A stretch of 57,086 nucleotides of DNA, from NCBI GenBank assembly GCA_964487475.1, contig CAZAPM010000008.1:1-57086 (forward strand), in the 5' to 3' direction. The notes under the pieces are model-generated. The model made no database searches, was not told the DNA's origin, and saw nothing but the letters and a program-made list of their open reading frames with translations. Within the stretch, counting starts at the first letter, position 1. Each line of letters begins with the position of its first letter. The translations under genes were made by a program, and so were the position numbers. The stretch comes from an uncultured Planctomycetales bacterium (GTDB lineage Bacteria > Omnitrophota > Gorgyraeia > Gygaellales > Profunditerraquicolaceae). Below, one piece after another: positions 2,311-45,236 of this stretch.

Positions 2311-2314
2311 CAAT

Positions 2315-6005: not shown

Positions 6006-6007
6006 CC

Positions 6008-10117: not shown

Positions 10118-10119
10118 CC

Positions 10120-13145: not shown

Positions 13146-13980
13146 CGATAAGGGAAAATTACTCGGATTGATCAACCCCATCGATCTTTTCTTCCTGCTG
13201 CTGGGAGCGCTGCTACTGCCGGCGACGGCAATGTTGCTGCATCTGGGAGCATCCCCCCAGGGCGCGTTGGGACTGCCGGTAGAGACCGAACTGGCCTGCA
13301 AATGCATCAAGATACCCCCAGACGTGCTTCCTCTGGTCAAAACCGGTAACACCGCCCTGGACAGGCGGACCAAACAGGTGACCGCTACGATCACCAAAAC
13401 CGGAGAGCCGCAGCCTTACGGTATCAGCATTTCCCTGGGGGACAAATACCGGCAGGTGATCCAGGATAAACACCTGCATCAGATGCAGGTGCACTTCAAG
13501 CTTCACGCCCAGGCCCAGGGGGATACCCTCTTTTACAACGGCTACCGCATCAACATCAATACCCCGTTCCAGTTCGAGACCAACAATTACCGGCTCACCT
13601 GTCTGCCCCTCAGTTCCCTGGAAATGTACGGAAAGTGGAAGACCATCACCGTACGCTTCGTGGACGTCTCCCCGGAGCTGCGCGCCTTGATCAACTCCGG
13701 GCATATCGAACGGGACGAGAACGGGGCTATCATCGCCAAGCTGGCGGAGATCACCGGCGCGGTGCCGGTCTCTGTCTCCACGGTGATCGGCAACCGGTTC
13801 CTGCTGATCAACGACCCCAGCCGCAAGGACATCACTGCGCGCATGGAAGTGCTCTGCTCGGACAACGGGGGATTGCTCCTCTTCAAGGAATTCCAGATAA
13901 AGGTGGGAGCGCAGATCGTGTTCAATTCGGATAAATACGTCGTCTCCGGGATAATCACCGGGATAGAGGATCCCCGATGA
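13132..13980 (+). CDS. DUF4330-like membrane-anchored protein (two tandem domains)
   Basis: N-terminus MRLIDDKGKLLGLINPIDL plus TM helix. Each half ends in a similar motif (RININTPFQFETNNY / IKVGAQIVFNSDKY). Confidence 0.7.
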   Translation: MRLIDDKGKLLGLINPIDLFFLLLGALLLPATAMLLHLGASPQGALGLPVETELACKCIKIPPDVLPLVKTGNTALDRRTKQVTATITKTGEPQPYGISISLGDKYRQVIQDKHLHQMQVHFKLHAQAQGDTLFYNGYRININTPFQFETNNYRLTCLPLSSLEMYGKWKTITVRFVDVSPELRALINSGHIERDENGAIIAKLAEITGAVPVSVSTVIGNRFLLINDPSRKDITARMEVLCSDNGGLLLFKEFQIKVGAQIVFNSDKYVVSGIITGIEDPR

Positions 13981-14141
13981 CGATACGGACGATCCTTAAC
14001 GGCTCCCTGGTGATCAGGAAACTGCGCAGCGGAACACGCAGGATCAAGGCAGCCTTACCGGCATCCCGGAGCAGGATCATCCGCGGAAGCAGGGTGCTGC
14101 GATTTCTAAATAACTGTTGCAAGTCCCTTTTTTTGCACTAG
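13977..14141 (+). CDS. Putative 54-aa highly basic small protein (absent from the ORF track)
   Basis: ATGA overlap with the DUF4330 stop and GAGGA RBS 6 nt upstream. MTIRTILNGSLVIRKLRSGTRRIKAALPASRSRIIRGSRVLRFLNNCCKSLFLH. Confidence 0.45.
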   Translation: MTIRTILNGSLVIRKLRSGTRRIKAALPASRSRIIRGSRVLRFLNNCCKSLFLH

Positions 14142-14144
14142 AAT
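14117..14144 (+). promoter_or_regulatory. Putative sigma70 promoter for the epimerase operon
   Basis: TTGCAA-16 nt-TAGAAT in an AT-rich stretch. GGAGG RBS lies before ATG 14186. Confidence 0.5.
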
Positions 14145-14185
14145 AATTATGTTCTGCTCATAATCATCCCGTTACGGAGGCAACC

Positions 14186-15157
14186 ATGAAGATACTTATC
14201 ACGGGAGGCGCCGGGTTTATCGGTTCGCATCTCGCGGAGCGTTTGCTCGCCGAAGGTAATTCGGTCGTAGCTTTAGACGACCTTTCCACCGGCAGGATGG
14301 AGAACATCTCCGCCCTGCAGAGCAATCCCAACTTCCAGCTGGTGATCGGCACCATCCTCAACGAAGTCCTGGTGGATAAACTGGTGGAGCGCTGCGATGC
14401 CATCTTCCATCTGGCAGCCGCGGTCGGGGTGGAACTGATCGTCAAAAAGCCCCTGGAATCCCTTACTACCAACATAAAAGGCAGCGAGATCGTGCTGGAG
14501 ATGGCGCACCGCTACCATAAGAAGATCCTCATCACTTCCACCTCCGAGATATACGGGAAGAACGTCAACGGCCCCCTGAAAGAAGGGGATGACCGCATTC
14601 TGGGCTCGCCTTTGAAGACACGCTGGAGCTATTCCACCGCCAAGGCCGTAGACGAGATGCTGGCCTATGTCTACTGGAAGGAAAAAGCGGTGCCTGCGGT
14701 GATCGTGCGGCTCTTTAACACCGTCGGGCCGCGCCAGACGGGATACTACGGGATGGTCATGCCGCGCTTCATCGAGCAGGCGCTTTCCGGAAAACCCCTT
14801 ACCGTATACGGGACCGGAAAACAGACCCGCTGCTTTACCCACGTCAAGGACGTGGTCAGCGCCCTGATCAAACTGATCCAGGAGCCGAAAGCGGAAGGGG
14901 AGGTCTTCAATATCGGCAGCCAGCAGGAGATCAGCATCGAAGATCTGGCCAAAGAGATCATCAAATTGACCGGAAGCGCCTCAAAGATCGAGTATATCGC
15001 CTATGAGACCGCCTACGAGGAAGGATTCGAGGACATGCAGCGCCGGGTTCCCGATATCGGCAAGATCCATTCCTGCATCGGCTATACCCCTTCCTATAAG
15101 CTCGAGCAGATCATCAAGGATATAGTCGCCTATATCAGTTCTAAACAGAAGAAGTGA
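14186..15157 (+). CDS. NAD-dependent nucleotide-sugar epimerase/dehydratase (extended SDR)
   Basis: GGAGFIGS, TSTSEIYG, YxxxK (YSTAK), RLFNTVGPRQ, RCFTHVKD. Confidence 0.92.
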   Translation: MKILITGGAGFIGSHLAERLLAEGNSVVALDDLSTGRMENISALQSNPNFQLVIGTILNEVLVDKLVERCDAIFHLAAAVGVELIVKKPLESLTTNIKGSEIVLEMAHRYHKKILITSTSEIYGKNVNGPLKEGDDRILGSPLKTRWSYSTAKAVDEMLAYVYWKEKAVPAVIVRLFNTVGPRQTGYYGMVMPRFIEQALSGKPLTVYGTGKQTRCFTHVKDVVSALIKLIQEPKAEGEVFNIGSQQEISIEDLAKEIIKLTGSASKIEYIAYETAYEEGFEDMQRRVPDIGKIHSCIGYTPSYKLEQIIKDIVAYISSKQKK

Positions 15158-16365
15158 AGCCTCGGACGCGCATACCGCTCCTGCGCATCATCGCCCGCCT
15201 CAATATCGGCGGCCCCGCGCTGCATACCGTGATCCTGACCCAGGGCCTGAAGCAGGAGGGTTTTGACACGGTGCTGGCGTGCGGACCGGTAGACCCCCAG
15301 GAAGGGGACATGTCCTATTTCGCGCGAGAGCGCGGGGTAGAGGTGCGCCTGATCCCGTCCCTTACCCGGAAAATATCACCCCTCAAAGACCTTACCGCTG
15401 CCGTATCGCTTTTCAAATTGTGCCTGGAGCATACACCCTGGGTGATACATACCCATACCGCAAAAGCCGGAGCACTCGGACGCCTGGCAGGATATCTTTA
15501 TAAAACCTGCTTCAGAAACAGAAATACCCCCTGCGTGCTGGTGCACACCTTCCACGGCCATGTTCTGGAAGGGTATTTCCATCCGGCGATCAACGCCTTT
15601 TTTACGGCGCTCGAACGGCTGCTCTGCCTTACGACCGACCGCATTCTCACCGTAAGCGACTCCGTTAAAGAGGAACTGGTATCCCGCCGCATTTGCCCTG
15701 CCGATAAGATCGAGGTCATACCCTTAGGCTTTGACCTTTCCGCGTTTACCGCCGTCACCGAACCCAAAGAAACGGAGACCTTCACCATAGCCATGGTCGG
15801 CAGGATGGTCCCCATCAAGAACCACCGGATGCTGCTGGAGGCGCTGGCACTACTTAAGAAAAAGGACCCTCGCCGGTCATTCTCCTGCGTCCTGGCCGGG
15901 GACGGGGAGTTGCGGCCGCAGCTGGAAGCATACGCCCGGGAACTCGGCATCGAAAACCAGGTGCATTTTTCCGGATGGCAGAAGGATACCGCGCAGATCT
16001 ATTCCCGTTCGGATTGCGTGGTCCTGACCTCCCTTAACGAAGGTACGCCAGTGTCCCTGATCGAAGCCATGGCCAGCGGCCGTGCCGTAGCCGCCACCAG
16101 GGTAGGAGGAGTGCCTGACCTGATGGGAAGACCCTGCCAGCCGCCCTCCCTGGCGCCCGGAAGTATCAGCGTGCACGAGCGGGGGATACTCGTCGCCTCG
16201 GGGGATGCGGCTGCGCTGGCAGAGGCTTTGGATACGTTACGCCAGCAGCCGGCGCTTCGCGCCATGCTCGCGGCCAGGGGCAGGGCTTTCGCCTCGACGG
16301 CCTTCACCCGCGAGCGCCTCTGCGGCGATATAAAAAACCTGTATGCAAAGCTGCTGAAGCAATGA
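15154..16365 (+). CDS. GT4 glycosyltransferase
   Basis: RIIARLNIGGPA, HTHTAKAG, HTFHGHV, GRMVPIKNH, SLNEGTPVSLIEAMASG. GTGA overlap. Confidence 0.92.
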   Translation: MKPRTRIPLLRIIARLNIGGPALHTVILTQGLKQEGFDTVLACGPVDPQEGDMSYFARERGVEVRLIPSLTRKISPLKDLTAAVSLFKLCLEHTPWVIHTHTAKAGALGRLAGYLYKTCFRNRNTPCVLVHTFHGHVLEGYFHPAINAFFTALERLLCLTTDRILTVSDSVKEELVSRRICPADKIEVIPLGFDLSAFTAVTEPKETETFTIAMVGRMVPIKNHRMLLEALALLKKKDPRRSFSCVLAGDGELRPQLEAYARELGIENQVHFSGWQKDTAQIYSRSDCVVLTSLNEGTPVSLIEAMASGRAVAATRVGGVPDLMGRPCQPPSLAPGSISVHERGILVASGDAAALAEALDTLRQQPALRAMLAARGRAFASTAFTRERLCGDIKNLYAKLLKQ

Positions 16366-16371
16366 TATAAT
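16363..16371 (+). promoter_or_regulatory. Extended -10 element (TGnTATAAT) 8 nt before the wecA-like start
   Basis: TGATATAAT at 16363-16371, ATG at 16380, no Shine-Dalgarno sequence in between. Confidence 0.5.
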
Positions 16372-16379
16372 TACGCATT

Positions 16380-18161
16380 ATGAGCATGCAGGATTTTCTC
16401 TTCTACTTCGGGTTCCCTTTTCTGGGAAGTCTCTGCCTGACCCCCCTGGTCCGCTCCTTTGCCCGGGCGCATAACATCATCTCGTACCCCCGGCAGGACC
16501 GCTGGCATAAACACCCCACCGCGCTCTTAGGCGGCATCGCCATCTTCCTGGCCGCGATCATCCCCCTGATCCTGCTCTCCTCCCATGACCGCAAGACCTT
16601 AGGGTTGATCGGAGGGGGGACGCTGCTTTTCCTGGTCGGCCTGGCGGACGATAAATTCCATTTCGCGCCGTACACCAAGCTCTTCGCCCAGCTGATCGCG
16701 GGAAGCATCGCCGTGCTGGCCGGCATATCCATCGGCATGCCCGTGAACCAGTTGTTATCCGTTCCCCTGACCCTGCTCTGGATCGTAGGCATCACCAACG
16801 CCTTCAACCTCCTGGACAACATCGACGGTCTGGCCGCCGGGATCGCCGCCATCGCCGCGGCCATGCTCTTCATCACCTCCGTGATCTTCGCCTACAATCC
16901 GCTGGGGCCGGCAGGGCTGGTGCTCGCAGGCGCCGCCTTAGGGTTCCTGCCGTACAACTTCAATCCGGCGAAGATCTTCATGGGGGATTCCGGAAGCATG
17001 TTCTTAGGGTATTCCCTGGCCGTGGTCTCCATCTCCGGGACCAGCCGGCACCTTTCCAACCTGCTCATCACCCTTTTCATCCCGGTACTGATCCTCTGCG
17101 TGCCTATCTTCGACACCCTCTTCGTGATGATCGGCCGCACCATCCAGGGGAAAAAGATATTCGAGGGGGGAAAGGACCATACCTCGCACCGCCTGGTCAC
17201 CCTGGGGCTTTCCCCGAAGAAAGCCGTGGTGCTCATGTATGCGGTCAGCATCGTCTTCGGCCTGATCGCGCTTTCCTACCTGAAGCTCGACTTCTTTCTG
17301 GTCTCCATCATCGCCTTCCTGGGGGTGTGCATCCTGATCTTCTTCGGACACTTTCTTTTCGAAGGCACCTCGTACAAGGCAGCGACTGCCGGAAAACCCC
17401 TCGATCCCGCGGGAAGGAAGGTGGTGCTGACCGGGTTCTTCATGCATAAGAGGAGGATCCTGGAAGTGGTGCAGGATTTCCTTTTCGTCTGCACCGCGTA
17501 CTACGCGGCATACTTCCTGCGCTTCGAGGGAGGCCTCCTGGCGAGCAACCTGGAACTCCTCAAGAACTCCCTTTTATGGATCATCCTGATCAAGATGTCA
17601 GTCTTCTTCGCCTTCGGATTGTACCGGGGGGTATGGCGCTATATCGGCATCTCCGATTTCTTCACTATTTTCAAGGTCTGCTCCATCGGTTCGCTCTTCT
17701 CCGTGCTCTTTCTGACCTTCGTCTTCCGGTTCAAGGATTACTCCCGGGCGGTGTTCATCATCGACTGGCTGATCCTGCTGCTCCTGCTGATGGGCTCGCG
17801 TTTCCTGCTGCGCATGATCGTGGAGTTCTTCAGCCGGGTCTCCACCAAGGGTAAGCGGGTGCTCATTTTCGGGGCAGGGGATATCGGAGAGATGGTGGTC
17901 CGCGAGATGCGCCGGGACAAATCCCTGAGCTACTGCCCGGTGGGGTTCGTGGATGACGATCCCCGGAAGACCGGGATCAAGATCCACGGGGTACCCGTGA
18001 TGGGGACCAGGCAGGGGATGGAGGAGCTGATCCAAAAGAAGGGGATCGAGGAGCTGATCATCGCCATTTCCAGCATCTCCCCGGAGGAGATGGATAAGAT
18101 CGTCCGCCTATGCAAAGAGCATCACCTCACCTACCGCAAGGTCAAAGGCATCCTGGAATGA
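16380..18161 (+). CDS. WecA/MraY-family polyprenyl-phosphate sugar-1-phosphate transferase fused to a CapD/PglF-type membrane plus CoA-binding-like domain
   Basis: GLADDK, NAFNLLDNIDGLAAG, FMGDSGS, KDHTSHRL. Then YRGVWRY, VLIFGAGDIG, GFVDDDPRK, EELIIAI. The protein ends before any dehydratase catalytic domain. Confidence 0.85.
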   Translation: MSMQDFLFYFGFPFLGSLCLTPLVRSFARAHNIISYPRQDRWHKHPTALLGGIAIFLAAIIPLILLSSHDRKTLGLIGGGTLLFLVGLADDKFHFAPYTKLFAQLIAGSIAVLAGISIGMPVNQLLSVPLTLLWIVGITNAFNLLDNIDGLAAGIAAIAAAMLFITSVIFAYNPLGPAGLVLAGAALGFLPYNFNPAKIFMGDSGSMFLGYSLAVVSISGTSRHLSNLLITLFIPVLILCVPIFDTLFVMIGRTIQGKKIFEGGKDHTSHRLVTLGLSPKKAVVLMYAVSIVFGLIALSYLKLDFFLVSIIAFLGVCILIFFGHFLFEGTSYKAATAGKPLDPAGRKVVLTGFFMHKRRILEVVQDFLFVCTAYYAAYFLRFEGGLLASNLELLKNSLLWIILIKMSVFFAFGLYRGVWRYIGISDFFTIFKVCSIGSLFSVLFLTFVFRFKDYSRAVFIIDWLILLLLLMGSRFLLRMIVEFFSRVSTKGKRVLIFGAGDIGEMVVREMRRDKSLSYCPVGFVDDDPRKTGIKIHGVPVMGTRQGMEELIQKKGIEELIIAISSISPEEMDKIVRLCKEHHLTYRKVKGILE

Positions 18162-19378
18162 CCCGCGCGCTTCAGGAGCATCTGGAAAAGGCGGTCGTAG
18201 TGTGCGCGGGGATATTCCTGCTCTGGGGGATATTCGACGCCAAAGCCGCCAAGATACTCCTCATGATCATGCTGGCGGCCATCCTGGTGAAAACCATCCT
18301 TTCCCGGGGACAGGATTGGCCGGAGAGGTTCTTCATCGCGCCGGGCCTGCGTTATCCGGTCTTCGCCTTTTACGCGGCGTGCCTGCTCTCCGTTGCGTTG
18401 AGCATCGATCCCTACCACAGCCAGAAGATATTCTTCTCCCGCTATGCGCCTTATGCCGGGTTCATGATCGCGGGGATATGGCTCGGCCGCACCCACCCCG
18501 CCTGGCTCAGCCGCCTCATGTACGGATTCCTCCTGCTGCAGCTCGTGCTGGGAGCAGGGATGATCCGGGATTATTTCTTTTATGCGCAGACCAATCCCGC
18601 GATGGTGGAGCGGCTCTGGTCCACGTTCGGTATCCGCATCGAGTATTACGGCCTGCCGGTATTCCTCTCCATGTTCATACCCTTCTGCTGCGCCTGCGTG
18701 ATAAAAGGCCGGCGCGTCTTCCTGCAGCTGGTCTCTTTGGCCGCGCTGGCGTGCCTCATCCCGAGCCTGGCGCTGAATTCCTCGCGCATCGCCATGGCCG
18801 GGGTGATCGCCGGGATGCTGTTCGTCGTGGCGACCATGCACCGTAAAAAAGCCGCGATCGGGATGCTTATCGCGGCACTCTTCATTACCGGCCTGCTGGC
18901 CGTTCCGCAGGCCAGGCAGCGGCTCAAAACCGTACGCACTCCCGCAGAATGGTCGAACCGCATCCCCCTTTACCGCGCCGCGCTCTCCATGATCAGGGAC
19001 CAGCCGGTCATGGGCACGGGCTTAGGCACCTTTGAAAAAGTGCTGCACTGGCCGAAATACGAACTTCCGGAAGATTATCCCGTGCCACGGGAGCTCAACC
19101 TCCATGCGCATAACACCTACCTGGAGGTGGCTGCGGAGACGGGATTGATAGGAGGGATATGCTTTCTCTGGATCTTCGCGGCCTTTTTCCTGCACGCGTG
19201 GAAGGCGGTCAAGGACGATCCGTACCCTTTCACCGCCGGCTTAAGCGCGGCGATGCTTTCGGTGCTGGTATTCGCCTTCGGGTCGACCATCCTTACCGTC
19301 GGGATCACCGTGCCGGGCTACTTCTGGTTCCTCTTCGGCGTATCCCTTGGATCCGTCACTTCCCGCTTCCGCCGCTGA
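18158..19378 (+). CDS. O-antigen ligase family protein (Wzy_C)
   Basis: LNSSRIA, WSNRIPLY, PVMGTGLGTF, HAHNTYLEVAAETGLIG. ATGA overlap. Confidence 0.85.
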   Translation: MTRALQEHLEKAVVVCAGIFLLWGIFDAKAAKILLMIMLAAILVKTILSRGQDWPERFFIAPGLRYPVFAFYAACLLSVALSIDPYHSQKIFFSRYAPYAGFMIAGIWLGRTHPAWLSRLMYGFLLLQLVLGAGMIRDYFFYAQTNPAMVERLWSTFGIRIEYYGLPVFLSMFIPFCCACVIKGRRVFLQLVSLAALACLIPSLALNSSRIAMAGVIAGMLFVVATMHRKKAAIGMLIAALFITGLLAVPQARQRLKTVRTPAEWSNRIPLYRAALSMIRDQPVMGTGLGTFEKVLHWPKYELPEDYPVPRELNLHAHNTYLEVAAETGLIGGICFLWIFAAFFLHAWKAVKDDPYPFTAGLSAAMLSVLVFAFGSTILTVGITVPGYFWFLFGVSLGSVTSRFRR

Positions 19379-19410
19379 TCTACCACCCCTTGCCCGGGGG
19401 AAAATCCACC

Positions 19411-19449
19411 TAAATATTTATTGCTCAAGCAGTTATTGTGTGTTATTTT
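19411..19449 (+). promoter_or_regulatory. Putative sigma70 promoter with an upstream AT palindrome
   Basis: Perfect palindrome TAAATATTTA (19411-19420), then TTGCTC-17 nt-TATTTT preceded by TG. Confidence 0.4.
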
Positions 19450-19484
19450 AATCATACTATTACCGGTATACGGAGCAACGGCGC

Positions 19485-20531
19485 ATGCCTCAATATGATC
19501 TAAATCTTCGAGAGTATCTTCGTATTTTCCGCAAGAGAAGTTATGCCATAATCGCCGTATTCCTTCCCGTCACTCTCGGCAGCGCGTTATACCTTTCTTC
19601 GCAGCCCGCTCATTACAGGGCCGACGCCACCATCAAGATCGAAGAGCGCAAGACCATCGCCGGTATGCTCACGGAGTGGATCATGTTCAATCCCGGCGAT
19701 ATCATGGAAACCCATACCCAGACCATCAAAGCATACCCGGTGCTCAAGCGCACCGCGGAGGAAATCGGGCTGCTGGCTCCCCAGGCAGACACGGAGGCGG
19801 CGAACGCCGCGGTCAGCGCCCTGCAGGGACAGATCGAGACCGAACGGGTCAGCCGGACCAACATGATCCGCATCATCGCGACCGCCGATACACCCAAAAA
19901 AGCCATGGACATGGCCAACACCGTGGCCCGGGTGTATATCGACGAAAATATGCGGGAAAAATCCACGCAAGCCAGACAAGTGCGAAGTTTCATCGAAGAG
20001 CAGCTGGCTTCCCTGGAAACACAGCTTAAACGATCCGAAGAAAAGCTCAGCTCCTTTTCCGAACAGGTCCGGAACATCTCCCTGTCCGGACCTATCCAGT
20101 CGAGACTGGTCGACTTACAGTTCAGCCTCGCGGAATTGCTGCAGCAGTACACGGAGAAGCATCCGAAGGTCCTGCAGTTGCAGGAGCAGATCTCCCGGAT
20201 CGAATCGCAGCTTACCACCATGTCCAGCCAGGAGCTGGAATATACCCGCATTTCCCGGGAGATCGAAGTGAATAAAAAGCTCTTCTCCATGCTGAAGGAG
20301 AAGCTGGAAGAGGCGAAGATCAACGACGCGCAGAGAGTGGAGGATATCACCGTGGTCAATCCGGCGTTCCTGCCGCAGGTGCCGGTATCCAGTGCGATAC
20401 ACGGCGCAAAATTGCTCACGAGCGCCTTCGTGGGGCTGCTGCTCGGGCTTACCGTAGCCTTCATCCTGGAGGCCCTGGACACTTCCCTCAACATTATCAA
20501 AGAGGTGAAAAAAAACCGGGAGGGACGCTGA
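19485..20531 (+). CDS. Polysaccharide co-polymerase (Wzz/Wzc N-terminal part) without a tyrosine-kinase domain
   Basis: DLNLREYLRIFRKR, two TM helices flanking a coiled coil, YTEKHPKV, Pro-rich PAFLP before TM2. Ends at EALDTSL...EGR. Confidence 0.8.
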   Translation: MPQYDLNLREYLRIFRKRSYAIIAVFLPVTLGSALYLSSQPAHYRADATIKIEERKTIAGMLTEWIMFNPGDIMETHTQTIKAYPVLKRTAEEIGLLAPQADTEAANAAVSALQGQIETERVSRTNMIRIIATADTPKKAMDMANTVARVYIDENMREKSTQARQVRSFIEEQLASLETQLKRSEEKLSSFSEQVRNISLSGPIQSRLVDLQFSLAELLQQYTEKHPKVLQLQEQISRIESQLTTMSSQELEYTRISREIEVNKKLFSMLKEKLEEAKINDAQRVEDITVVNPAFLPQVPVSSAIHGAKLLTSAFVGLLLGLTVAFILEALDTSLNIIKEVKKNREGR

Positions 20532-22420
20532 TGGGGGGCATCTGCGGGATTTGGCATTTTGATAAGGCTGCGGCTGTCGATCGCGGCCGCATCGATGCCA
20601 TGATCGCCCATATGCACCACCGCGGACCGGACAGCAAAGGCACTTTCATCAGCGGCCAGGTAGGCTTGGGAGCAGCCAGGCTGAAAGTCCTCGATCCGGA
20701 ACACGGGGACCAGCCGATCTACAACGAGGACCGCAGCGTCGCGGTGGTCTTCAACGGAGAGATCTACAATTACCGCGGTGTGCGCGCGCTGCTGGAAGAC
20801 AAAGGACACCGTTTCTCCACCGCCACGGACACGGAAGTGATCGTGCACGCCTGGGAATCCTACGGCCGCATGAGCCTGGAACTGCTGCGGGGAATGTTCG
20901 CCTTCGCGCTCTATGACCACCGCACCCGGGAACTTTTCGTCGCCCGTGACCGTCTGGGGATCAAACCGCTTTATCTGTTCCGGGACCAGGCGATCCTGGC
21001 CTTCGCCTCCGAGATCAAGCCGCTCTTCGAGGCCGACTGCTCGCGTATCCCCAGGGCCATCGATCCGTATGCGCTCGATGAGTTCTTAAGCCTGCGCTAC
21101 TGTATCGAACCGCGCACCATATTCGACAAGATAGAAACGCTGCCTCCCGGATACTGCCTTTCGGTAAAGAACGGTTCCTGCGAGATGTCCCGCTACTGGG
21201 ACCTGCGTTTCCATGCGGCCTCGAAAAAAGCCTTACGTCCCGGGCAGACTGCGGAAAAATGCCTGGAACTGCTGGACGGGTCCACGGCGCTGCATTTGGC
21301 CAGCGACGTGCCGATAGGCGCTTATTTAAGCGGAGGGGTCGATTCCTCCGCGATCGTGCAGCTGATGCAGGCGCACTCGGGACAGCCGGTACACACCTTT
21401 TCCGTGGGATACCCCCAGGATGCGCGCAGCTACGACGAAACCCCCTTTGCCCGGTTTGCCGCGGAGGTGCTGCGAAGCAGCCATCAGAGCCTGGCGATGA
21501 ACGCGGAGGATTTCCGCGCACTGCTGCCGCTGTACGTGCGCCACCAGGAGCAGCCACTCGGAGACGCATCCCTGGTGCCGTTCCTGTTCCTCTCCCGCCA
21601 CGCCTCACGCTCCATGAAAGTCATGCTTTCCGGCATGGGAGGGGATGAGTTCTTCTTCGGATACCCGGAGATGCGCGATGCCGTGGTCAACCTGGCCTTA
21701 AGCCGCCTGACCAGAGGCACACTGACGCAACGAGGGATACTGGCGGCATTTTCCCGCGGCGCGTATCCTCCCGGGATACTCCGGGGGCTAGCGCGCATCG
21801 CATTCTTCCCTCCCCGTGCCTTTATGCTGCCCCGCTATTTCCAGCCCGCGCATAAGGACCTGCTTTACGGTGAAGCGCTGCGCGACGCCAAAGTACGCCA
21901 CCACACCGATCAGGCGATCAAAGCCGTGCTGCTGCAGGCGCCGGAGGGGGCAAACGCCTATCAGCAAACCCTCTATGTCTGGACGAAAACCATGCTGGCT
22001 TCCAATATACTGCAGGGAAGCGATAAAGCCAGCATGGCCGCCTCCATTGAAATGCGCGTACCGCTGCTCGACCATACCCTGGTGGAATTCCTGGCGAACA
22101 CGCCCCTGAACATACTCTACGCCTCAGGGAGATACAAGTACCTGCTCAAGCGCTCCATGCGCCACCGTCTGCCTGCCCACATACTGGAGAGGAAAAGAAC
22201 GGGGTTCCAGACTCCCGAGGTACCCTGGCTCTGCGGTGCGCTGCGCCCAACGATAGAAGAAACTCTGCGTCAAAGCCGGGGAGTACGCTACGGTTATTTC
22301 TCCGGCAAAGGGATCGAGACCCTGCTTCGTTCGTTCACCCGGGAAGATCCCGCGGCAGTAAGAAGGATATGGCTGCTCTACCTGTTCGAATTATGGCATA
22401 AGGAGTTCTTCGGCGCATGA
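20531..22420 (+). CDS. asnB: Asparagine synthase B-like amidotransferase/ligase with a non-canonical N-terminus (MGGICG)
   Basis: HRGPD, FNGEIYN, TDTEV, RDRLGIKPLY, LSGGVDSS, SGMGGDE, EMRVPLLD. Start overlaps the upstream TGA. Confidence 0.85.
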   Translation: MGGICGIWHFDKAAAVDRGRIDAMIAHMHHRGPDSKGTFISGQVGLGAARLKVLDPEHGDQPIYNEDRSVAVVFNGEIYNYRGVRALLEDKGHRFSTATDTEVIVHAWESYGRMSLELLRGMFAFALYDHRTRELFVARDRLGIKPLYLFRDQAILAFASEIKPLFEADCSRIPRAIDPYALDEFLSLRYCIEPRTIFDKIETLPPGYCLSVKNGSCEMSRYWDLRFHAASKKALRPGQTAEKCLELLDGSTALHLASDVPIGAYLSGGVDSSAIVQLMQAHSGQPVHTFSVGYPQDARSYDETPFARFAAEVLRSSHQSLAMNAEDFRALLPLYVRHQEQPLGDASLVPFLFLSRHASRSMKVMLSGMGGDEFFFGYPEMRDAVVNLALSRLTRGTLTQRGILAAFSRGAYPPGILRGLARIAFFPPRAFMLPRYFQPAHKDLLYGEALRDAKVRHHTDQAIKAVLLQAPEGANAYQQTLYVWTKTMLASNILQGSDKASMAASIEMRVPLLDHTLVEFLANTPLNILYASGRYKYLLKRSMRHRLPAHILERKRTGFQTPEVPWLCGALRPTIEETLRQSRGVRYGYFSGKGIETLLRSFTREDPAAVRRIWLLYLFELWHKEFFGA

Positions 22421-22470
22421 CCGGATCACGGGATTGCGCATGAGTTCCCTCTTTCGAAAGGAGATCGCAC

Positions 22471-23520
22471 GTGGATCTGCATAGCTTCCAGTATAAGCGC
22501 ATACTCGTCATCAATTTGGGAGGCATCGGGGACGTCCTGCTCTCGACGCCTGCGCTGCGTACGCTGAAGAACACCTATCCCTTTGCGGAGATCAGCATGC
22601 TGGTGGTCCCCAGGGTAGTTCCCCTGGCAGAACGACTTCCGTACATCACCCGGGTATATTCCTTCCAGAAGACCGGATTCGACCTTTTCGATGCCGTACA
22701 GAACATCCCCAACCTGATGCTGCTGCGCAACGGCAAATTCCACCTCGCGATCAACATGCGCAGGATCAGTTCGCTGGAAAGTTCGCGCAAATTACAGATG
22801 ATATTGAATATCATCCGGCCCGCGCAAACCGCCGGCAGGAACACGGAAGCGCGGGGAGGATTCTTCACCATCAGCATACCCGAAGAGGACTTGACGAAAA
22901 CCTCCGAGATGGACCACGACCTTGCCCTGGTCGAACAGCTGGGGGTCAAAATAAGCGACCGGGCTATCGATTTCCCCCTGCGCAGCGAGGACAACACCGC
23001 GGTCGAGAGGATCATGAAACGCTATGACCGGGAGTTACACACCCCGATAATCGTAGTGCAACCGGGAGGCAAGCCGGGAAAGCGCTGGATGAAAGACCGT
23101 TTCTCCCAGCTGATCAACCGGCTGCGCACCTCAACCGACGCGTTCTACGTCATCACCGGGTCGAAGGAAGAACGCGGGTTAGCGGCGCACATCGCTTCCT
23201 CGGCCGGGACGGATGCGGCCAATCTGGCGGGTAAACTCACCATATTCCAGACCGGCGCGCTGCTGAAAAAAGCCAAACTTTTCATTACCAACGATAACGG
23301 TATGATGCATGTGGCCGCTGGATTGCAGGTGCCCATGGTGGCAATGCTTACCCCCGGCAGCATCAGCCGGTACGATCCCCGGATAGTGGACCCGAAAGCC
23401 CTGGTGCTCTGGAAGGAGCCTCCCTGCGCGCCGTGCATCCGCGACGACTGCACCGATCCGGCCTGTCTTCAGGATATCAGCGTGGAAGAAGCCCTGGAAG
23501 CCTGCCTCACATTCCTATGA
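22471..23520 (+). CDS. GT9 (heptosyltransferase-like) glycosyltransferase
   Basis: ILVINLGGIGDVLLSTPALRTLK, NLAGKLT, ITNDNGMMHVAAG, PPCAPC. GTG start with AAGGAG RBS. Confidence 0.9.
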   Translation: MDLHSFQYKRILVINLGGIGDVLLSTPALRTLKNTYPFAEISMLVVPRVVPLAERLPYITRVYSFQKTGFDLFDAVQNIPNLMLLRNGKFHLAINMRRISSLESSRKLQMILNIIRPAQTAGRNTEARGGFFTISIPEEDLTKTSEMDHDLALVEQLGVKISDRAIDFPLRSEDNTAVERIMKRYDRELHTPIIVVQPGGKPGKRWMKDRFSQLINRLRTSTDAFYVITGSKEERGLAAHIASSAGTDAANLAGKLTIFQTGALLKKAKLFITNDNGMMHVAAGLQVPMVAMLTPGSISRYDPRIVDPKALVLWKEPPCAPCIRDDCTDPACLQDISVEEALEACLTFL

Positions 23521-23573
23521 GCATGCTTTCCCGTATCTATAACCGGCGCCGAAACCCGCTTTCATCATATGTA

Positions 23574-23602
23574 TTGACACTAAAAAACCCGAGCATTAGA
23601 AT
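23574..23602 (+). promoter_or_regulatory. sigma70 promoter, 9 nt before the wza-like ATG
   Basis: TTGACA-17 nt-TAGAAT. Confidence 0.7.
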
Positions 23603-23611
23603 GGTGGAAGA

Positions 23612-24499
23612 ATGCTTACCACACTGACGATCCGGGTTCTGATGGTATGGTGCATCATGACCGCGCTTCCGGGAAATACCGTTCATGCCGAGCCTGCGCG
23701 CGCGGAAGAAGCCATGGATCTGTATCGGAAGGGCAACGATCTCTACTCGCAAGGCAGCTACCGGCAAGCCCAGGAATACTATAAGAAAGCCGCCGAGCTG
23801 ATGAGAACGGCAGAACTCGAACCTCCGCAGGAAGCGGAGCACCGGCCTTCTGCGCACCCGGCCCCGCAGGAGGCGGGGCACCGGCCACTACCTCTTGGGC
23901 CGGGTGCGCAAGGAACAGAGGCGAGGGGTGAGTATACGATCGGGCAGGGGGACATCATCCATCTTTCCGTATGGCAGAATCCCGACTTGGAGCAGGAGAC
24001 CGTGGTGCGGCCCGATGGCAAGATCTCCGTACCCCTGGTCGGAGACATCCCTGCGGTAGGCCTTACCCTTACCCAGCTCGACGATTCCATCACCCGGCAG
24101 CTCCGTGAATTCATCCGCCGGCCGGAAGTATCCCTTTCCATCAGCAAGCTGGGGGGCAATAAAGTACTGGTCTTAGGAGCGGTCAATGCACCCGGAGTCT
24201 ACTCCGTCAACGGCCAGAAAAGCGTACTGGAGGCGATCAGCCTGGCACAGGGGTTCCACAAGGATGCCGCACCCACCAGCGTGATCCTTATCCGGGGAGG
24301 TCTGCGCAGCCCCGTACCACAGCGCTTAAACCTGGCCAAGGCGCTCAGAGGGATGCCGAGAGAGAACACGACCCTGCTGCCGGAAGATGTCATCTACGTG
24401 CCGCGCAAGTTCATCGCGGACGTCAATTACGTCCTTTCCCAGATCCTTGACCCCATCGCCAAAGGGGTATACACCGCCAAGGAACTGCAGACGTTTTAA
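23612..24499 (+). CDS. Wza/Poly_export-SLBB polysaccharide export protein with an N-terminal TPR-like repeat
   Basis: YTIGQGDIIHLSVW, VRPDGKISVPLVGDI, VLVLGAVNAPG, LLPEDVIYVP, C-terminal amphipathic helix. Confidence 0.85.
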   Translation: MLTTLTIRVLMVWCIMTALPGNTVHAEPARAEEAMDLYRKGNDLYSQGSYRQAQEYYKKAAELMRTAELEPPQEAEHRPSAHPAPQEAGHRPLPLGPGAQGTEARGEYTIGQGDIIHLSVWQNPDLEQETVVRPDGKISVPLVGDIPAVGLTLTQLDDSITRQLREFIRRPEVSLSISKLGGNKVLVLGAVNAPGVYSVNGQKSVLEAISLAQGFHKDAAPTSVILIRGGLRSPVPQRLNLAKALRGMPRENTTLLPEDVIYVPRKFIADVNYVLSQILDPIAKGVYTAKELQTF

Positions 24500-31884: not shown

Positions 31885-31925
31885 TAAATTGTCCGCATCT
31901 TTTAATATGCCATATAATGGATATT

Positions 31926-31972: not shown

Positions 31973-32425
31973 GTGAATAAACCGGGACGGTATCAAGTAT
32001 TACGTATGCGCATGCGAAAACGCAATAATAAAGGTATGAGCCTGGTGGAAGTACTGATCGCCATCGCGGTGTTCTCGATAGGGGTGGTCGCGCTTTTAAG
32101 CAGTATCGTCTCCGTATTCTTCCTTTTGGAATCCTCAAAGAACCAGGCCCTGGCGCTTTCAGACGTGCGCAGCATCATGGAGCGCATCCGCGCCACTCCT
32201 TACTCCAATATGCTGACTGATTTTCCCGATGCTACGGTGAACGGCCCTTCAGGATCCAAACGTTATTCGACGGTCCTGGGAGGGTACGGGCTGGGCACGG
32301 AGAACATGACCGTGACCTACACCAACAGCGCGACGGACCCCCTGGAAGTGAAGGTCACCGCCCGCTGGAGGGACAGGTTCGGCCGAAGCGAGACGTTAGC
32401 CCTGTCCACGTATAAGACGAGGTAG
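31973..32425 (+). CDS. Type IV pilin-like protein (PilV/pseudopilin-like)
   Basis: Class III signal: basic leader ...RKRNNKG|MSLVEVLIAIAVFSIG with Glu at +5. Start is GTG 31973 or ATG 32006/32012. Confidence 0.85.
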   Translation: MNKPGRYQVLRMRMRKRNNKGMSLVEVLIAIAVFSIGVVALLSSIVSVFFLLESSKNQALALSDVRSIMERIRATPYSNMLTDFPDATVNGPSGSKRYSTVLGGYGLGTENMTVTYTNSATDPLEVKVTARWRDRFGRSETLALSTYKTR

Positions 32426-32427
32426 CG

Positions 32428-33000
32428 ATGAAAAAACTGGGACGAAGAGGCCTTTCCCTGGTCGAGACGGTCATCACGGTGGGGATCATGCTGCTGACGG
32501 TGGATATCGCCTACAACGTCTACGTGACCAACTTCGACATGTGGGATGTGGGAAACGAGCAGGCGGAGCTGCAGTACCAGGCGCGAAGCGCCTTGAACCG
32601 CATGACCGCGGAGCTTCGCAACACCACGCGCACCTCGACCCAGACCCCGTCCCCCAACATCTCCATTCCCTCGACCCCGAACAACAAATCCATCCAGTTC
32701 ACGCTTCCCGAAGAGGATATGGGCGGGGGAGTGAGCGTGGTCAACGACGAAATAGACTGGGATACTAATACCAATATCCAATACCAGTATGTGCCCGGCC
32801 AGAAAGAGTTGCGCCGATCGGTGGGAGGCACGCACCTGGTGCTGGCTTCGAACGTATCGGACGTGCAGTTCATCGACACGGGAATCGACGGCTCGCTGCT
32901 GCGCGACGAGCTCAAAATCGTCCTGACACTGCAAAAGACCATCCGGGGAGGGAAAGTGATCACGGCCACCGCCCAGGGGATCGTCAAACTGAGGAACTAA
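32428..33000 (+). CDS. Type IV pilin-like protein (PilW-like)
   Basis: MKKLGRRG|LSLVETVITVGIMLL with Glu at +5, and ALNRMTAELR helix. Confidence 0.85.
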   Translation: MKKLGRRGLSLVETVITVGIMLLTVDIAYNVYVTNFDMWDVGNEQAELQYQARSALNRMTAELRNTTRTSTQTPSPNISIPSTPNNKSIQFTLPEEDMGGGVSVVNDEIDWDTNTNIQYQYVPGQKELRRSVGGTHLVLASNVSDVQFIDTGIDGSLLRDELKIVLTLQKTIRGGKVITATAQGIVKLRN

Positions 33001-33002: not shown

Positions 33003-34628
33003 ATGCGATTACGCACGAATAAAGCGCAAGCACTGATCCTGGCGTACATGGTGATCGCGGTATTCCTGCTGATGTCATCGGCGCTTTCCACCCGGGCGAT
33101 CGTGGAAGGGCGCGCATCCTTAGTCAACAACCGGCAGGCCGAGGTGTTCTACCTGGCGGAAGGGGGCACCGAGAGGGCCATCGCGGTCTTTTCCGCGGCC
33201 ATCGCTAATTACCAGACCATCCCGGGAACGGTCACCACCACGTTCCCCTCGTTTCATAACGTCACCGTCAACTCGACCATCACCGACTTGGAGAGCGGCA
33301 ACTCCACCGACCGGACCACAAGCGCGGGGGGCAGTTTCGTGAAGATCCGGCAGTACGAGATCACCACCACCGCCGTGCACCCGTCGGATGCCAACATCAC
33401 CGCGACCGTGCACCAGATCATCGAACGCCGCCTGATACCTACCTTCCAGCACGCGGTCTTCTACAACGACGACCTGGAGATCATCCCCGGGGCGAACATG
33501 AACCTCTCCGGCCGCATCCACTGCAACGAGGATATGTACCTGGACGCCTATGCCGGAAGCACCCTGACCATCAACTCCACGTACATACATTCCGCCGGGA
33601 ACATCTACAACCAGCGCAAGGATGACGGAAGCGAACAGGGAGGGGAGGTAAGCATCCGGGAGAACAAGACCGGCTCCCCCAGTTATGAGGACATGGATAA
33701 CCTCGACTGCGACAATGCCTCCTGGCTTTCCGCAGCCGATGCCCGATGGAACGGATCGGTCATGAGCTCGGTGCACGGCATTACCAAGCTGACCGCGCCT
33801 GCGGTAGGCAGCATCGCACCGGGAGGGTATTACGCCTCCAACGCCAATCTTGTCATCACCGCCAACGGCTCTGCCGTCACCGTGACCAAGGGCGGAGTGC
33901 CGCTGACCCAGGGGGTGGATTACCCCAACGGCACGTTCCAGGTCAAGACCACCTTCTACGATAACCGCGAGTCCCAGACCGTGCAGATGCTCGAGATCGA
34001 TATGCGAAAGCTCGCCGGATACAACACCACCAATGCCACCAACGCGACGTTCTCCAACAATCTGCCCTCCAACGGCCTGCTCTATGCCAGCATCGGCGGC
34101 ACCGGATCGAACCTGCCGGGGGTAGCGCTCACCAACGCCACCGAGATCAGGAGAAGCGGCGGATTGACGGTGGTATCCCAGAATCCGGTGTACCTGAAAG
34201 GCAACTATAACACCGTCAACGAAACCTCTGCCGCCATCATCTGCGACTCGCTGAACTTAGTCTCAAACGCCTGGAAGGATTCCAACAGCACTGGAAACAT
34301 CAACGGCAGGGTGGCTAACGCCACCGTATATAACAGCGCCTTTATCGCGGGGGTCGACGAAACGGTAGCCGGCAGTTACAACGGCGGCCTCGAGAACTAT
34401 CCCCGGTTGCACGAAAAATGGGGCAGCGTCAACCTGACCATCAAGGGCTCCTTTGTCGAGCTCTGGCAGACGCAGGTAGCAGACGGCAACTGGCCGGGTA
34501 CGGGTTCCGTGTACACCCCACCGGTGCGCAAATGGAGCTATAACGAGAACTTCAACAACGTCTCGAACCTTCCGCCCTTCACCCCCTACGCAGTCGAAGC
34601 CGAAAGAATAGCGTGGTGGATAGATTGA
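33003..34628 (+). CDS. PilX-like minor pilin with a large Asn/Thr/Ser/Gly-rich extracellular domain
   Basis: N-terminal KAQALILAYMVIAV (pilin helix lacking Glu5), QAEVFYLAEGG (PilX-type), C-terminal GSFVELW and YTPPVRKWSY. Third gene in the pilV-pilW-pilX order. Confidence 0.75.
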   Translation: MRLRTNKAQALILAYMVIAVFLLMSSALSTRAIVEGRASLVNNRQAEVFYLAEGGTERAIAVFSAAIANYQTIPGTVTTTFPSFHNVTVNSTITDLESGNSTDRTTSAGGSFVKIRQYEITTTAVHPSDANITATVHQIIERRLIPTFQHAVFYNDDLEIIPGANMNLSGRIHCNEDMYLDAYAGSTLTINSTYIHSAGNIYNQRKDDGSEQGGEVSIRENKTGSPSYEDMDNLDCDNASWLSAADARWNGSVMSSVHGITKLTAPAVGSIAPGGYYASNANLVITANGSAVTVTKGGVPLTQGVDYPNGTFQVKTTFYDNRESQTVQMLEIDMRKLAGYNTTNATNATFSNNLPSNGLLYASIGGTGSNLPGVALTNATEIRRSGGLTVVSQNPVYLKGNYNTVNETSAAIICDSLNLVSNAWKDSNSTGNINGRVANATVYNSAFIAGVDETVAGSYNGGLENYPRLHEKWGSVNLTIKGSFVELWQTQVADGNWPGTGSVYTPPVRKWSYNENFNNVSNLPPFTPYAVEAERIAWWID

Positions 34629-45179: not shown

Positions 45180-45188
45180 ATTGATGTA

Positions 45189-45217: not shown

Positions 45218-45236
45218 CTGCTACCGGCCAAAATGG

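Follow-up and report, generated by a model that had tools for sequence, protein, structure and literature searches.

An excess of N-x-T sequons in a large ComZ/PilX-like minor pilin of an Omnitrophota bacterium: a candidate N-glycosylated pilus tip

The phylum Omnitrophota comprises ultra-small bacteria that probably live attached to hosts, and nearly all of them have type IV pili (PMC10066038). The window analyzed here, a stretch of 57,086 nucleotides from a Candidatus Omnitrophota bacterium, encodes a 541-aa pilin-like protein that is unusually rich in N-x-S/T sequons, raising the question of whether these sequons are acceptor sites for glycans or have some other origin. An earlier note on this DNA had estimated that about 20 of about 52 asparagines lie in sequons where about nine would be expected by chance. 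Exact counting (N-x-[S/T], x not Pro) bears this out: 20 of the 52 Asn, namely residues 86, 90, 100, 131, 167, 191, 221, 238, 250, 288, 309, 341, 344, 347, 378, 406, 428, 439, 477, and 519, are in sequons, against 9.2 expected from a composition that includes 18.3% Ser+Thr. Composition does not account for the excess, since 20,000 composition-preserving shuffles gave a mean of 9.17 (sd 2.62) and reached 20 or more at a frequency of 1e-4. The Poisson p value is 0.0014, or 0.0066 with the tandem cluster of three sequons counted as one, and Bonferroni correction over the ~45 genes of the window leaves p at ~0.005. The sequon excess is thus a real, non-random feature of this protein.

The excess resides in N-x-T only (15 against 5.0 expected), with N-x-S at 5 against ~4.4. 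N-x-T is the strongest outlier among all i/i+2 residue pairs in the protein (z 4.5), while the reversed motif T-x-N occurs 6 times and N followed by T at gaps of 0, 2, and 3 occurs 2, 2, and 4 times, respectively; the excess is therefore both directional (N-to-T) and specific to the +2 spacing. Nor is the excess a matter of Asn and Thr clustering locally, since NT, NxxT, and TxN are depleted. An origin in DNA repeats was likewise ruled out, as no repeat underlies the sites, the codons of the tandem cluster included. Only two of the 20 sequons carry Asp or Glu at −2 (~1.7 expected by composition), consistent with the earlier observation that most lack the acidic residue of the Campylobacter sequon.

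Turning to the identity of the protein, its description as a PilX-like pilin is upheld: with high confidence, it is a large ComZ/PilX-type minor pilin of a type IV pilus. Its gene is the third of a pilV/pilW/pilX-like trio separated by intergenic gaps of 2 nt and is co-transcribed with the genes for the PilV-like and PilW-like minor pilins (Table 1). The PilV-like ORF opens at GTG 31973, but the likelier start is ATG 32006, from which the leader reads MRMRKRNNKG/MSLVE (the slash marking the presumed cleavage site), with Gly at −1 and Glu at +5. Both upstream genes encode the prepilin peptidase motif (G/MSLVE and G/LSLVE), and the PilW-like protein gave no match in Pfam or NCBIfam. The 541-aa protein itself lacks this site, reading K-A/Q-A-L-I-L with no Glu at +5. 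Column counts across the family show a conserved α1 start, K-[G/A]-Q-A-L-I-L-x-Y, also without Glu at +5; the family consensus at the presumed cleavage site is K-G/QALIL, against Ala rather than Gly at −1 here. A missing Glu at +5 is typical of GspK/PilX-type members.

Table 1. Features of the window bearing on the pilin trio and on possible glycan supply (positions in the window).
Feature	Position	Strand	Basis
Wzx/Wzy-type exopolysaccharide cluster, hypothetical glycan donor	754..24499	+	Domain matches
Wzy_C (O-antigen ligase family) membrane protein	18110..19378	+	PF04932, 2.6e-22
Candidate sigma-70-like promoter, AT-rich interval separating oppF from the pilin genes	31889..31918	+	TTGTCC-18-TATAAT, 10/12, consensus match only
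PilV-like minor pilin	31973..32425	+	Pfam N_methyl 2.4e-8; N-terminal NCBIfam matches to PilV, ComGE, GspI
PilW-like minor pilin, RG/LSLVE	32428..33000	+	ORF and prepilin motif
ComZ/PilX-like large minor (tip) pilin, 541 aa, 20 N-x-S/T sequons	33003..34628	+	Counts, shuffles, homologs, AF2, Foldseek
Pilin-type N-terminal α1 helix, residues 3–68, zero sequons	33009..33206	+	DSSP of AF2 model, column counts
Tandem sequon cluster N-T-T-N-A-T-N-A-T, residues 341–349	34023..34049	+	Predicted loop; lineage-specific

An AF2 model of the 541-aa protein (pLDDT 90.2, pTM 0.85) has the fold of the pilin superfamily, a hydrophobic α1 helix followed by a globular, beta-rich domain. Foldseek returned a sole significant PDB match, the minor pilin ComZ (6QVI; E 9e-8, probability 1.0), with a TM-score of only 0.25–0.28 and 9% identity, and a profile search of the PDB detected no sequence similarity to ComZ. 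The protein matched no Pfam family, PilX_N (PF14341) included, although PF14341 is a precomputed annotation of two homologs and is approached by a 350-aa paralog (a weak 21 bits against a cut-off of 25.5). In NCBIfam, the one similarity was a partial match to HpsA (NF038301; 65 bits against a cut-off of 400, E 2.8e-18). More than 377 homologs were retrieved, all of them Omnitrophota proteins without a name; more broadly, the ComZ-like tip-pilin family is large, previously unnamed, and present in at least 448 species genomes, that of the cultured Syntrophus buswellii included. No type IV pilus machinery genes are encoded within the window, but the trios of relatives sit inside full type IV pilus clusters: in one (L064) the same trio is flanked by two PilB genes, PilC, and PilA on one side and by PilM and a secretin on the other. 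The trio of another relative (L006) adjoins ComEC. By analogy with ComZ, PilX, and GspK, the three pilins of the window would form a priming complex and come to lie at the tip of the pilus.

Within the window, the sequon excess is a property of this one protein. The remaining 44 genes, pooled, encode 48 sequons against 46.4 expected. The two small pilins together have 5 against 3.6 expected, which is no enrichment: the PilV-like protein has 1 (1.5 expected) and the PilW-like protein has the 4 previously counted (2.1 expected, not significant). The periplasmic OppA, used as an internal control in the earlier note, has a single sequon among its 15 Asn as claimed, and OppA and Wza of the window both show no enrichment.

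Comparison with relatives drew on 118 family members and on 47 related loci. When these loci were pooled, with homologous positions counted repeatedly, the observed/expected ratio of N-x-T was 1.57 for minor pilins, 1.34 for PilX-like proteins, 1.17 for other exported proteins, and 0.92 for cytoplasmic proteins; reversed and shifted control motifs were all at or below 1. In these loci, the contrast between exported and cytoplasmic proteins that had been proposed as a check leans toward selection on sequons, with minor pilins but not cytoplasmic proteins enriched. The cytoplasmic proteins of related loci, at ~0.9–1.0 for sequons, also show no avoidance. An export-specific excess of this kind, with cytoplasmic proteins and the remainder of the window both null, is what would be looked for in N-linked glycoproteins. 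Homologs of the same fold from Planctomycetota, Syntrophus, and Ignavibacteria are null for N-x-T (1.07), as are their adjoining pilins (0.67). The N-x-T excess is confined to Omnitrophota pilus proteins, yet it is patchy inside the phylum, and an independent set of 14 Omnitrophota homologs was null (0.92).

One relative (P0098), which has no counterpart above 56% identity in JGI metagenomes or the protein database, carries 34 sequons in 551 aa (z 7.2). In the same locus, the PilV-like pilin has 9 sequons in 142 aa (z 4.7), including one loop in which almost all Asn are in sequons; an adjoining signal-peptide protein has 3 against 0.7, and both cytoplasmic flanks are null. A second PilX_N paralog, encoded in syntenic loci, has 16 sequons against 5.5 and 14 against 5.8. 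Conservation of the window sequons across orthologs, which the earlier note had put forward as a test, gave a divided answer. Four sites are common to 33–58% of homologs, but most others are lineage-specific and not conserved, and 13 of the 20, against a family mean of 3.5, fall in alignment columns in which a sequon is present in under 15% of the family. Rare positions nevertheless recur in sequon-rich relatives: the window protein and P0098 have 5 rare sequon columns in common against 0.46 expected (p 3e-5). Sequon load across the family carries phylogenetic signal (r 0.36–0.44).

Several features of the family alignment lean toward selection on the sequons. Sequons are underrepresented in the buried α1 helix (observed/expected 0.68) relative to the globular part (1.20), Pro is depleted at both x and +3 (odds ratios 0.47 and 0.28, respectively), and within alignment columns Asn couples more strongly with Thr at +2 than at any other offset (odds ratio 1.37, z 4.0), although only modestly above the general co-variation of Asn and Thr (~1.2). 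Overall, the comparative data partly support glycosylation.

We therefore consider N-linked glycosylation the leading explanation of the sequon excess in the 541-aa pilin, unproven and held tentatively. The beta-rich globular domain would have gained N-x-T sequons in this lineage, mostly in loops and at turn-to-strand junctions, and these would serve as acceptor sites for a periplasmic oligosaccharyltransferase (OST) encoded outside the window, with a minimal, Thr-preferring N-x-S/T specificity that needs no acidic residue at −2. Glycans would then coat the exposed pilus tip of organisms thought to attach to host cells by the pilus. Of the earlier proposal of an N-glycosylated pilus tip, the part that stands is the sequon excess, which is clade- and pilus-specific and avoids α1 and Pro; set against it are an OST found neither in the window nor in 1.46 Mb of related loci, the patchiness of the enrichment, and the lack of enrichment in the small pilins and other exported proteins of the window. 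Generalizing from this protein, and on a somewhat weaker footing, certain Omnitrophota lineages may run an N-linked system with a minimal Thr-preferring sequon, one that lays a heavy coat on the tip complex of minor pilins at up to one site every 16 residues.

The most serious alternative is structural. Here N-x-T-[I/V] would be a turn-to-strand element of a beta-rich, solenoid-like domain—Asn capping the turn, Thr facing outward, and Ile or Val facing inward. Some Omnitrophota sublineages would have multiplied this element to aid folding or stability, and it would bear no glycan. Judged from the secondary structure of the AF2 model only, 14 of the 20 sequon Asn are in coil, five (131, 309, 406, 439, and 477) lie at coil-to-strand junctions as this explanation would predict, and the turn-to-strand pattern fits about half of the sites. 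It is also consistent with the enrichment of Ile (2.5-fold) and Val (1.7-fold) at +3, with the placement of the best-conserved sequons on near-invariant asparagines (residue 378, 95% Asn in the family; residue 428, 74%), with a family-wide excess that is modest (1.14 for N-x-S/T, 1.33 for N-x-T) and partly inherited, and with the failure to find an OST. Against this, small pilins of a different fold are enriched more strongly (1.58), TxN, NT, and NxxT are depleted rather than co-enriched, and gains cluster in variable loops such as the PilV-like loop of P0098 and the tandem triple sequon, which the model places in a 20-residue coil. An intrinsic property of the fold as sole cause is ruled out because the distant same-fold homologs are null for N-x-T. 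Overall, we regard the structural explanation as unlikely, though deserving of serious weight alongside N-glycosylation.

The absence of an STT3/PglB gene from the window, remarked on before, was confirmed: no STT3, PglB, or AglB was found by Pfam and NCBIfam searches of all genes or by motif scans. The same held for 105 related loci totaling 1.46 Mb (~1% of each genome), searched in six frames by phmmer with a Pfam-validated PglB probe and by scans for WWDxG and a relaxed motif. Pfam searches of the ten largest multi-pass membrane proteins encoded close to related trios yielded ComEC, MurJ, a PMT-type GT-C, and transporters, and nothing else. If N-glycosylation does occur, its enzyme might belong to an OST lineage outside the PglBs of Campylobacterota and Desulfobacterota, or might be a non-STT3 enzyme.

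As for a glycan source, the earlier note had pointed to the gene cluster at 1–24.5 kb. This encodes a Wzx-like flippase, two B12-radical-SAM enzymes, GT2, GT4, and GT9 transferases, a WecA-type initiating transferase, Wzy_C, Wzz, an AsnB-like amidotransferase, and Wza, and thus reads as an ordinary Wzx/Wzy/Wzz/Wza exopolysaccharide locus; that it might donate a glycan to the pilins is speculation. Its Wzy_C protein may act as a polymerase, as a ligase, or as a PglL/TfpO-type O-oligosaccharyltransferase, and the last of these roles bears on a second, improbable alternative, in which pilin Ser and Thr residues are O-glycosylated by a Wzy_C-family enzyme (PglL/PilO/TfpO) or a PMT/ArnT-type GT-C and the N-x-T motif is incidental or a local preference. 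To our knowledge, all experimentally known glycosylation of bacterial type IV pilins is O-linked, and the 541-aa protein is 18% Ser+Thr. The Wzy_C protein is weakly similar to O-linking ligases (TIGR03097, TfpM), its NCBIfam matches to IctB, PEP_O_lig_1, and TfpM lying far under the cut-offs (24.9 bits against 600 for TfpM). The window also encodes an AglJ-like polyprenyl-phosphate hexose synthase that would feed a periplasmic GT-C enzyme, and one related locus (L010) has a PMT-family GT-C gene 2 kb away from its trio. However, the pilin of L010 shows no sequon enrichment, and the Wzy_C gene of the window lies 13 kb from the trio within the Wzx/Wzz/Wza cluster, a setting in which it is more simply read as a polymerase or ligase. 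Moreover, O-linkage leaves unexplained why Thr is enriched at +2 of Asn but not of Asp, Gln, Gly, Ser, or Lys, and why Pro is excluded at x and +3.

A third possibility, a variant of the N-glycosylation explanation that we consider very improbable, is a cytoplasmic HMW1C-like N-glycosyltransferase that would modify the same sequon from nucleotide sugars before membrane insertion. HMW1C-type enzymes recognize a minimal N-x-S/T without an acidic residue at −2, as the sequons here would suit, and modify adhesins many times over. The family is known mainly from Pasteurellaceae and relatives, however; no GT41-like gene is present in the window, and cytoplasmic proteins show no avoidance of sequons. 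Finally, chance—an Asn/Thr-rich protein picked post hoc among ~45 genes, with a milder excess against the family baseline (Poisson p 0.0025–0.006) and some outliers to be expected among 118 members—has scarcely any likelihood, given a shuffle p value that survives correction for 45 genes, an enrichment only at +2 and only from N to T, rare positions in common with other outliers, a relative at z 7.2, and the phylogenetic signal in sequon load.

Should N-glycosylation of the tip complex prove true, these would be the first bacterial type IV pili with this modification, and the coat would shape the host attachment of ultra-small, host-dependent bacteria. Few bacterial lineages are known to N-glycosylate proteins, and type IV filaments modified in this way are considered a trait of archaea; a tip complex so rich in sequons would take N-glycosylation to a new phylum and a new substrate class, would suggest an OST whose relaxed specificity is of interest to biotechnology, and would give a handle on how uncultured Omnitrophota cells present their attachment organelle.

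Among known systems, ComZ of Thermus thermophilus, a large competence-associated minor pilin, is the only one with a significant structural match. Both proteins have ~500–550 aa and combine a pilin N-terminal helix with a large beta-rich insertion, and each is encoded alongside small minor pilins and has a presumed tip location, whereas sequence similarity is undetectable and the global TM-score is low; we know of no report of glycosylation or sequon richness for ComZ. The PilX and GspK components of the FimU-PilVWXE and GspHIJK priming complexes resemble the 541-aa protein in being third in the trio and in having a hydrophobic N-terminus without Glu at +5, but classical PilX is two to three times smaller. 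HpsA, from cyanobacterial hormogonium polysaccharide secretion, where it is encoded with the pseudopilins HpsB–D, is the only named family with sequence similarity. That similarity is limited to a shared core of three stretches, the conserved RLIPTFQHAVFYNDDLEI core among them, and HpsA has ~1500 aa against 541 here.

With regard to glycosylation, the PilO/TfpO, PglL, and TfpW systems represent the established bacterial route, and a Wzy_C gene is likewise present in the window; those systems target Ser/Thr of major pilins with no Asn motif, whereas the pattern here is Asn-dependent and on minor pilins. The PglB systems of Campylobacter and of the Desulfovibrio type would supply the chemistry needed, the relaxed ones accepting a minimal sequon, and a literature search for Omnitrophota with OST, STT3, PglB, or glycosylation found nothing relevant and no report of PglB in the phylum. 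Campylobacter PglB needs Asp or Glu at −2, and this extended D/E-x-N-x-S/T sequon is not enriched either in the window protein or in the pooled set (49 of 434 sequons against 39.9 expected; 5 of 184 against 16.8 in minor pilins). Archaeal type IV pilins and archaellins, modified by AglB, resemble the Omnitrophota pilins in having many N-x-S/T sequons outside α1 with no acidic residue at −2 and at comparable density (one per 16–27 residues here). They differ in belonging to another domain, in carrying the modification mainly on major subunits, and in having a known OST, against bacterial minor pilins here. A relaxed sequon need not be archaeal- or eukaryote-like, as it was described earlier, because bacterial PglBs of the Desulfovibrio type already accept the minimal N-x-S/T sequon (PMC4894442, PMC12229607).

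The 541-aa protein is encoded by the last gene of a pilin trio (see table), with intergenic gaps of 2 nt and, 5' of the trio, a spacer that is rich in AT and contains a promoter-like site. The first gene matches the N_methyl, PilV, ComGE and GspI models; the 541-aa protein has no Pfam match, and its sole NCBIfam match, to cyanobacterial HpsA, is partial and below threshold. More than 377 homologues, all unnamed proteins, were found in Candidatus Omnitrophota MAGs (best 59% identical), with relatives in at least 448 species-representative genomes; those at 32–37% identity occur in Planctomycetota, Ignavibacteria and the cultured Syntrophus buswellii. An AlphaFold2 model built with 49 homologues (pLDDT 90.2, pTM 0.85) predicts a helix (residues 3–68) followed by a beta-rich body. 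Among PDB structures, only Thermus thermophilus ComZ gives a significant match (E 9e-8, probability 1.0, TM 0.25–0.28); ComZ is a large tip-associated competence pilin, and the resemblance is in predicted structure, with no sequence-level match. Glu+5 is missing from the conserved family N-terminus, K-[G/A]-QALIL-x-Y, as it is from GspK/PilX-type members; the presumed peptidase -1 residue is Gly in 93 of 117 homologues and Ala in the window protein. The database entry for the latter (P0001, 526 aa) begins at Met16, 15 codons late, and so loses the conserved N-terminus. At a related locus, L064, the neighbours of the same trio are PilB (two ATPases), PilC and a major pilin to one side, and PilM and a secretin to the other. 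Because of this N-terminus and the placing of the L064 trio among type IV pilus genes, the earlier description of a PilX-like pilin is right in kind; a more exact name is ComZ/PilX-type large minor pilin of a type IV pilus, and the protein is very probably a new ComZ/PilX-class tip pilin, unnamed so far.

At locus L006, in one relative, a ComEC gene precedes the pilin trio by approximately 1.4 kb, a hint, given the ComZ-like fold, of a DNA-uptake role for the pilus. Within the window, an SMC gene is flanked by genes for a stand-alone PilZ-domain protein and for a diguanylate cyclase (GAF-GGDEF), which may point to c-di-GMP control in the neighbourhood of the pilus and EPS genes.

Coordinates of features in the window and at related loci
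Locus	Feature	Position (strand)	Details
Window	Pilin trio gene 1, PilV-like	31973-32425	likely start ATG 32006; prepilin leader MRMRKRNNKG, cleavage, MSLVE
Window	Pilin trio gene 2, PilW-like	32428-33000	RG, cleavage, LSLVE
Window	Pilin trio gene 3, 541-aa large pilin	33003-34628 (+)	33003-33047 omitted from P0001
Window	PilZ-domain protein	40311-40670 (+)	
Window	GAF-GGDEF diguanylate cyclase	43950-45428 (-)	
1-24.5 kb cluster	Wzx-like flippase		
1-24.5 kb cluster	Two B12-binding radical-SAM enzymes	2315-3799 and 8636-10117 (+)	
1-24.5 kb cluster	GT2, GT4, GT9 transferases		
Window	GT2 with N-terminal extension	4446-6005 (+)	extension of 230 aa
1-24.5 kb cluster	WecA-type initiating transferase		
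Window	593-aa fusion	16380-18161 (+)	N-terminal domain PF00953
1-24.5 kb cluster	Wzy_C protein		resembles exosortase-associated 'O-glycosylation ligase' TIGR03097
1-24.5 kb cluster	Wzz		
1-24.5 kb cluster	AsnB-like amidotransferase	20531-22420	best match XrtA/PEP-CTERM amidotransferase TIGR03108
1-24.5 kb cluster	Wza		
L006	ComEC (Competence, DUF4131)	7115-8626	
L011	Second pilin trio	10991-13000	absent from window
L007	Second pilin trio	11546-13541	absent from window
L064	Three minor-pilin trios in a row	8788-12821	within T4P cluster
L080	Large-pilin homologue locus, S. buswellii DM-2	2894522-2916084	NZ_CP175563.1

The earlier note had reported a strong enrichment of N-x-[S/T] sequons (x not Pro) in the 541-aa protein from a manual count, and this observation was confirmed in all details. 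The exact count is 20 of 52 Asn, at the same sites, including the tandem N-T-T-N-A-T-N-A-T (residues 341–349). With Ser+Thr at 18.3%, 9.2 sequons are expected; in 20,000 composition-preserving shuffles, the control that the note had proposed, the mean was 9.17 (sd 2.62) and 20 or more were reached in a fraction of 1e-4 (Poisson p 0.0014, or 0.0066 with the tandem cluster counted as one). The excess lies in NxT alone (15 versus 5.0 expected; NxS 5 versus approximately 4.4), the top outlier of all i/i+2 residue pairs (z 4.5). Local Asn/Thr co-clustering is ruled out because the reversed motif T-x-N occurs 6 times and N..T spacings of 0, 2 and 3 only 2, 2 and 4 times. The ORF contains no DNA repeats. 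Asp or Glu at -2, said to be missing from most sequons, is present at 2 of 20. The counts of four for the PilW-like protein (2.1 expected) and one for OppA (1 of 15 Asn) also held; the PilV-like protein has 1 (1.5 expected), and the other 44 plausible window genes together have 48 versus 46.4 expected. Among the window genes compared, enrichment in the source organism is limited to the large pilin, in which it is a genuine, non-random feature. Asn makes up 9.6% of this protein, compared with 1–5% of the other proteins of the genome (59% GC); mean Asn is 8.3% in Omnitrophota family members versus 6.6% in distant homologues.

The 117 homologues taken together show only a weak excess (observed/expected NxS/T 1.14, NxT 1.33, NxS 0.95, TxN 1.07), with a heavy right tail of z-scores led by homologue P0098 (34 sequons, z 7.2), followed by the window protein (4.05) and then P0082, P0010 and P0053. 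Sequon load correlates with that of the nearest neighbour (r 0.36–0.44), a phylogenetic signal. Conservation in orthologues, which the note had put forward as a check, is divided: sequons at residues 378, 428, 90 and 250 recur in 58%, 45%, 35% and 33% of homologues, and 13 of 20 fall in columns where less than 15% of the family has one (family mean 3.5). P0098, at approximately 51% identity, has 12 sequon columns in common with the window protein, five of them rare versus 0.46 expected (p 3e-5), and rare columns of the two are found again in other sequon-rich members. Observed/expected sequon ratios in the family show depletion in alpha1 (0.68) and enrichment in the globular part (1.20); predicted coil holds 14 of the 20 sequon Asn of the 541-aa protein. 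In 1,378 pooled sequons, in which homologous positions are counted many times, Pro is found less often than in non-Asn controls, with odds ratios of 0.47 at x (p 4e-6) and 0.28 at +3 (p 3e-9). Asp or Glu at -2 is not enriched, and minor pilins have less of it than expected (5 versus 16.8). Within alignment columns, Asn–Thr(+2) coupling is the highest of all offsets (Mantel–Haenszel odds ratio 1.37, z 4.0, versus a general background of approximately 1.2).

In a comparison of exported with cytoplasmic proteins like the one proposed, pooled over 47 loci, NxT observed/expected is 1.57 in minor-pilin neighbours, 1.34 in PilX-like proteins, 1.17 in other exported proteins, 1.01 in multi-pass membrane proteins and 0.92 in cytoplasmic proteins, with the control motifs S/T-x-N, N-S/T, N-x-x-S/T and T-x-N all at or below 1. 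At the P0098 locus, a 142-aa PilV-like pilin has 9 sequons versus 2.5 expected (z 4.7) and a downstream signal-peptide protein 3 versus 0.7; both cytoplasmic flanks are null. Loci L011 and L007, syntenic with the window (pgk-tpi-opp-trio-marC-glgC-GNAT-acd-etfBA), carry a second trio whose PilX_N/DUF7305 protein of approximately 350 aa has 16 versus 5.5 and 14 versus 5.8. The L064 small pilins are sequon-rich (12 versus 4.0, pooled); its large ComZ-like protein is not (5 versus 6.1). A property of the fold is ruled out as the sole cause of the excess, since 23 distant same-fold homologues are null (NxT 1.07, TxN 1.12) and their neighbouring pilins give 0.67, versus 1.58 for those in Omnitrophota. 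An independent JGI metagenome set of 14 Omnitrophota homologues is also null (NxT 0.92); the trait is patchy within Omnitrophota. The homologue from S. buswellii DM-2 (35% identical; 7 sequons versus 7.1 expected) is not sequon-rich; this cultured organism, with a complete genome, provides an experimentally tractable holder of a family member.

Because the gain of N-x-T is lineage-specific, directional, Thr-biased, Pro-avoiding and pilus-restricted, we tentatively favor, as the best single explanation in the source organism, that the sites may have been selected as minimal sequons for Asn-linked glycosylation; its probability is higher in the P0098 lineage. Weighing against it are the restriction of the enrichment to the large pilin in this organism, the null JGI set, the repeated counting of homologous positions in all the pooled statistics, and the negative gene and literature searches for an oligosaccharyltransferase given below. 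A structural turn–strand motif, N-x-T-[I/V], is a possible though somewhat doubtful alternative, consistent with the enrichment of Ile and Val at +3 and with the location of approximately half of the window sequons at predicted turn-to-strand junctions.

O-glycosylation, with the N-x-T motif incidental, is improbable; this classical route stays a rival because polymerase, ligase and PglL/TfpO-type O-oligosaccharyltransferase are equally plausible roles for the Wzy_C protein of the 1-24.5 kb cluster. The cluster, earlier suggested as the glycan donor, is a conventional Wzx/Wzy-type polysaccharide locus, and nothing ties it to the pilins. It looks like a PEP-CTERM/exosortase-type EPS cluster; no exosortase was seen in the window. 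The reducing end from the WecA-type initiator would be a HexNAc, acceptable to oligosaccharyltransferases (OSTs). The 593-aa fusion joins a WecA/MraY-type polyprenyl-phosphate HexNAc-1-P transferase domain to a non-catalytic CoA_binding_3/WbaP-N-terminal-like half typical of another phosphoglycosyltransferase family, and it lacks a Bac_transf catalytic domain. The extended GT2, whose best NCBIfam match is of the archaeal AglJ/dolichyl-phosphate hexose synthase type (sub-threshold at 118 bits), is by sequence a predicted polyprenyl-phosphate sugar synthase, implying a periplasmic GT-C partner, which is absent from the window. A cytoplasmic NGT variant of N-glycosylation is very unlikely, and chance warrants equally little credence.

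As the earlier note had stated, no STT3/PglB/AglB gene was found among the window genes; nor was one found in the window plus 105 related loci (1.46 Mb, approximately 1% of each genome), using a Pfam-validated PglB probe (PF02516, 377 bits) and relaxed WWDxG motifs. The searchable literature holds nothing on OSTs or N-glycosylation in Omnitrophota, and the main genomic surveys of the phylum treat type IV pili as attachment organelles only. The relaxed sequon per se is not archaeal/eukaryote-like, as it had been labeled, since it is already a feature of bacterial PglBs of the Desulfovibrio type (PMC4894442, PMC12229607). Asn-linked glycosylation of these pilins, if confirmed, would be a variant within known bacterial N-glycosylation and pilin glycosylation, and not a new category.
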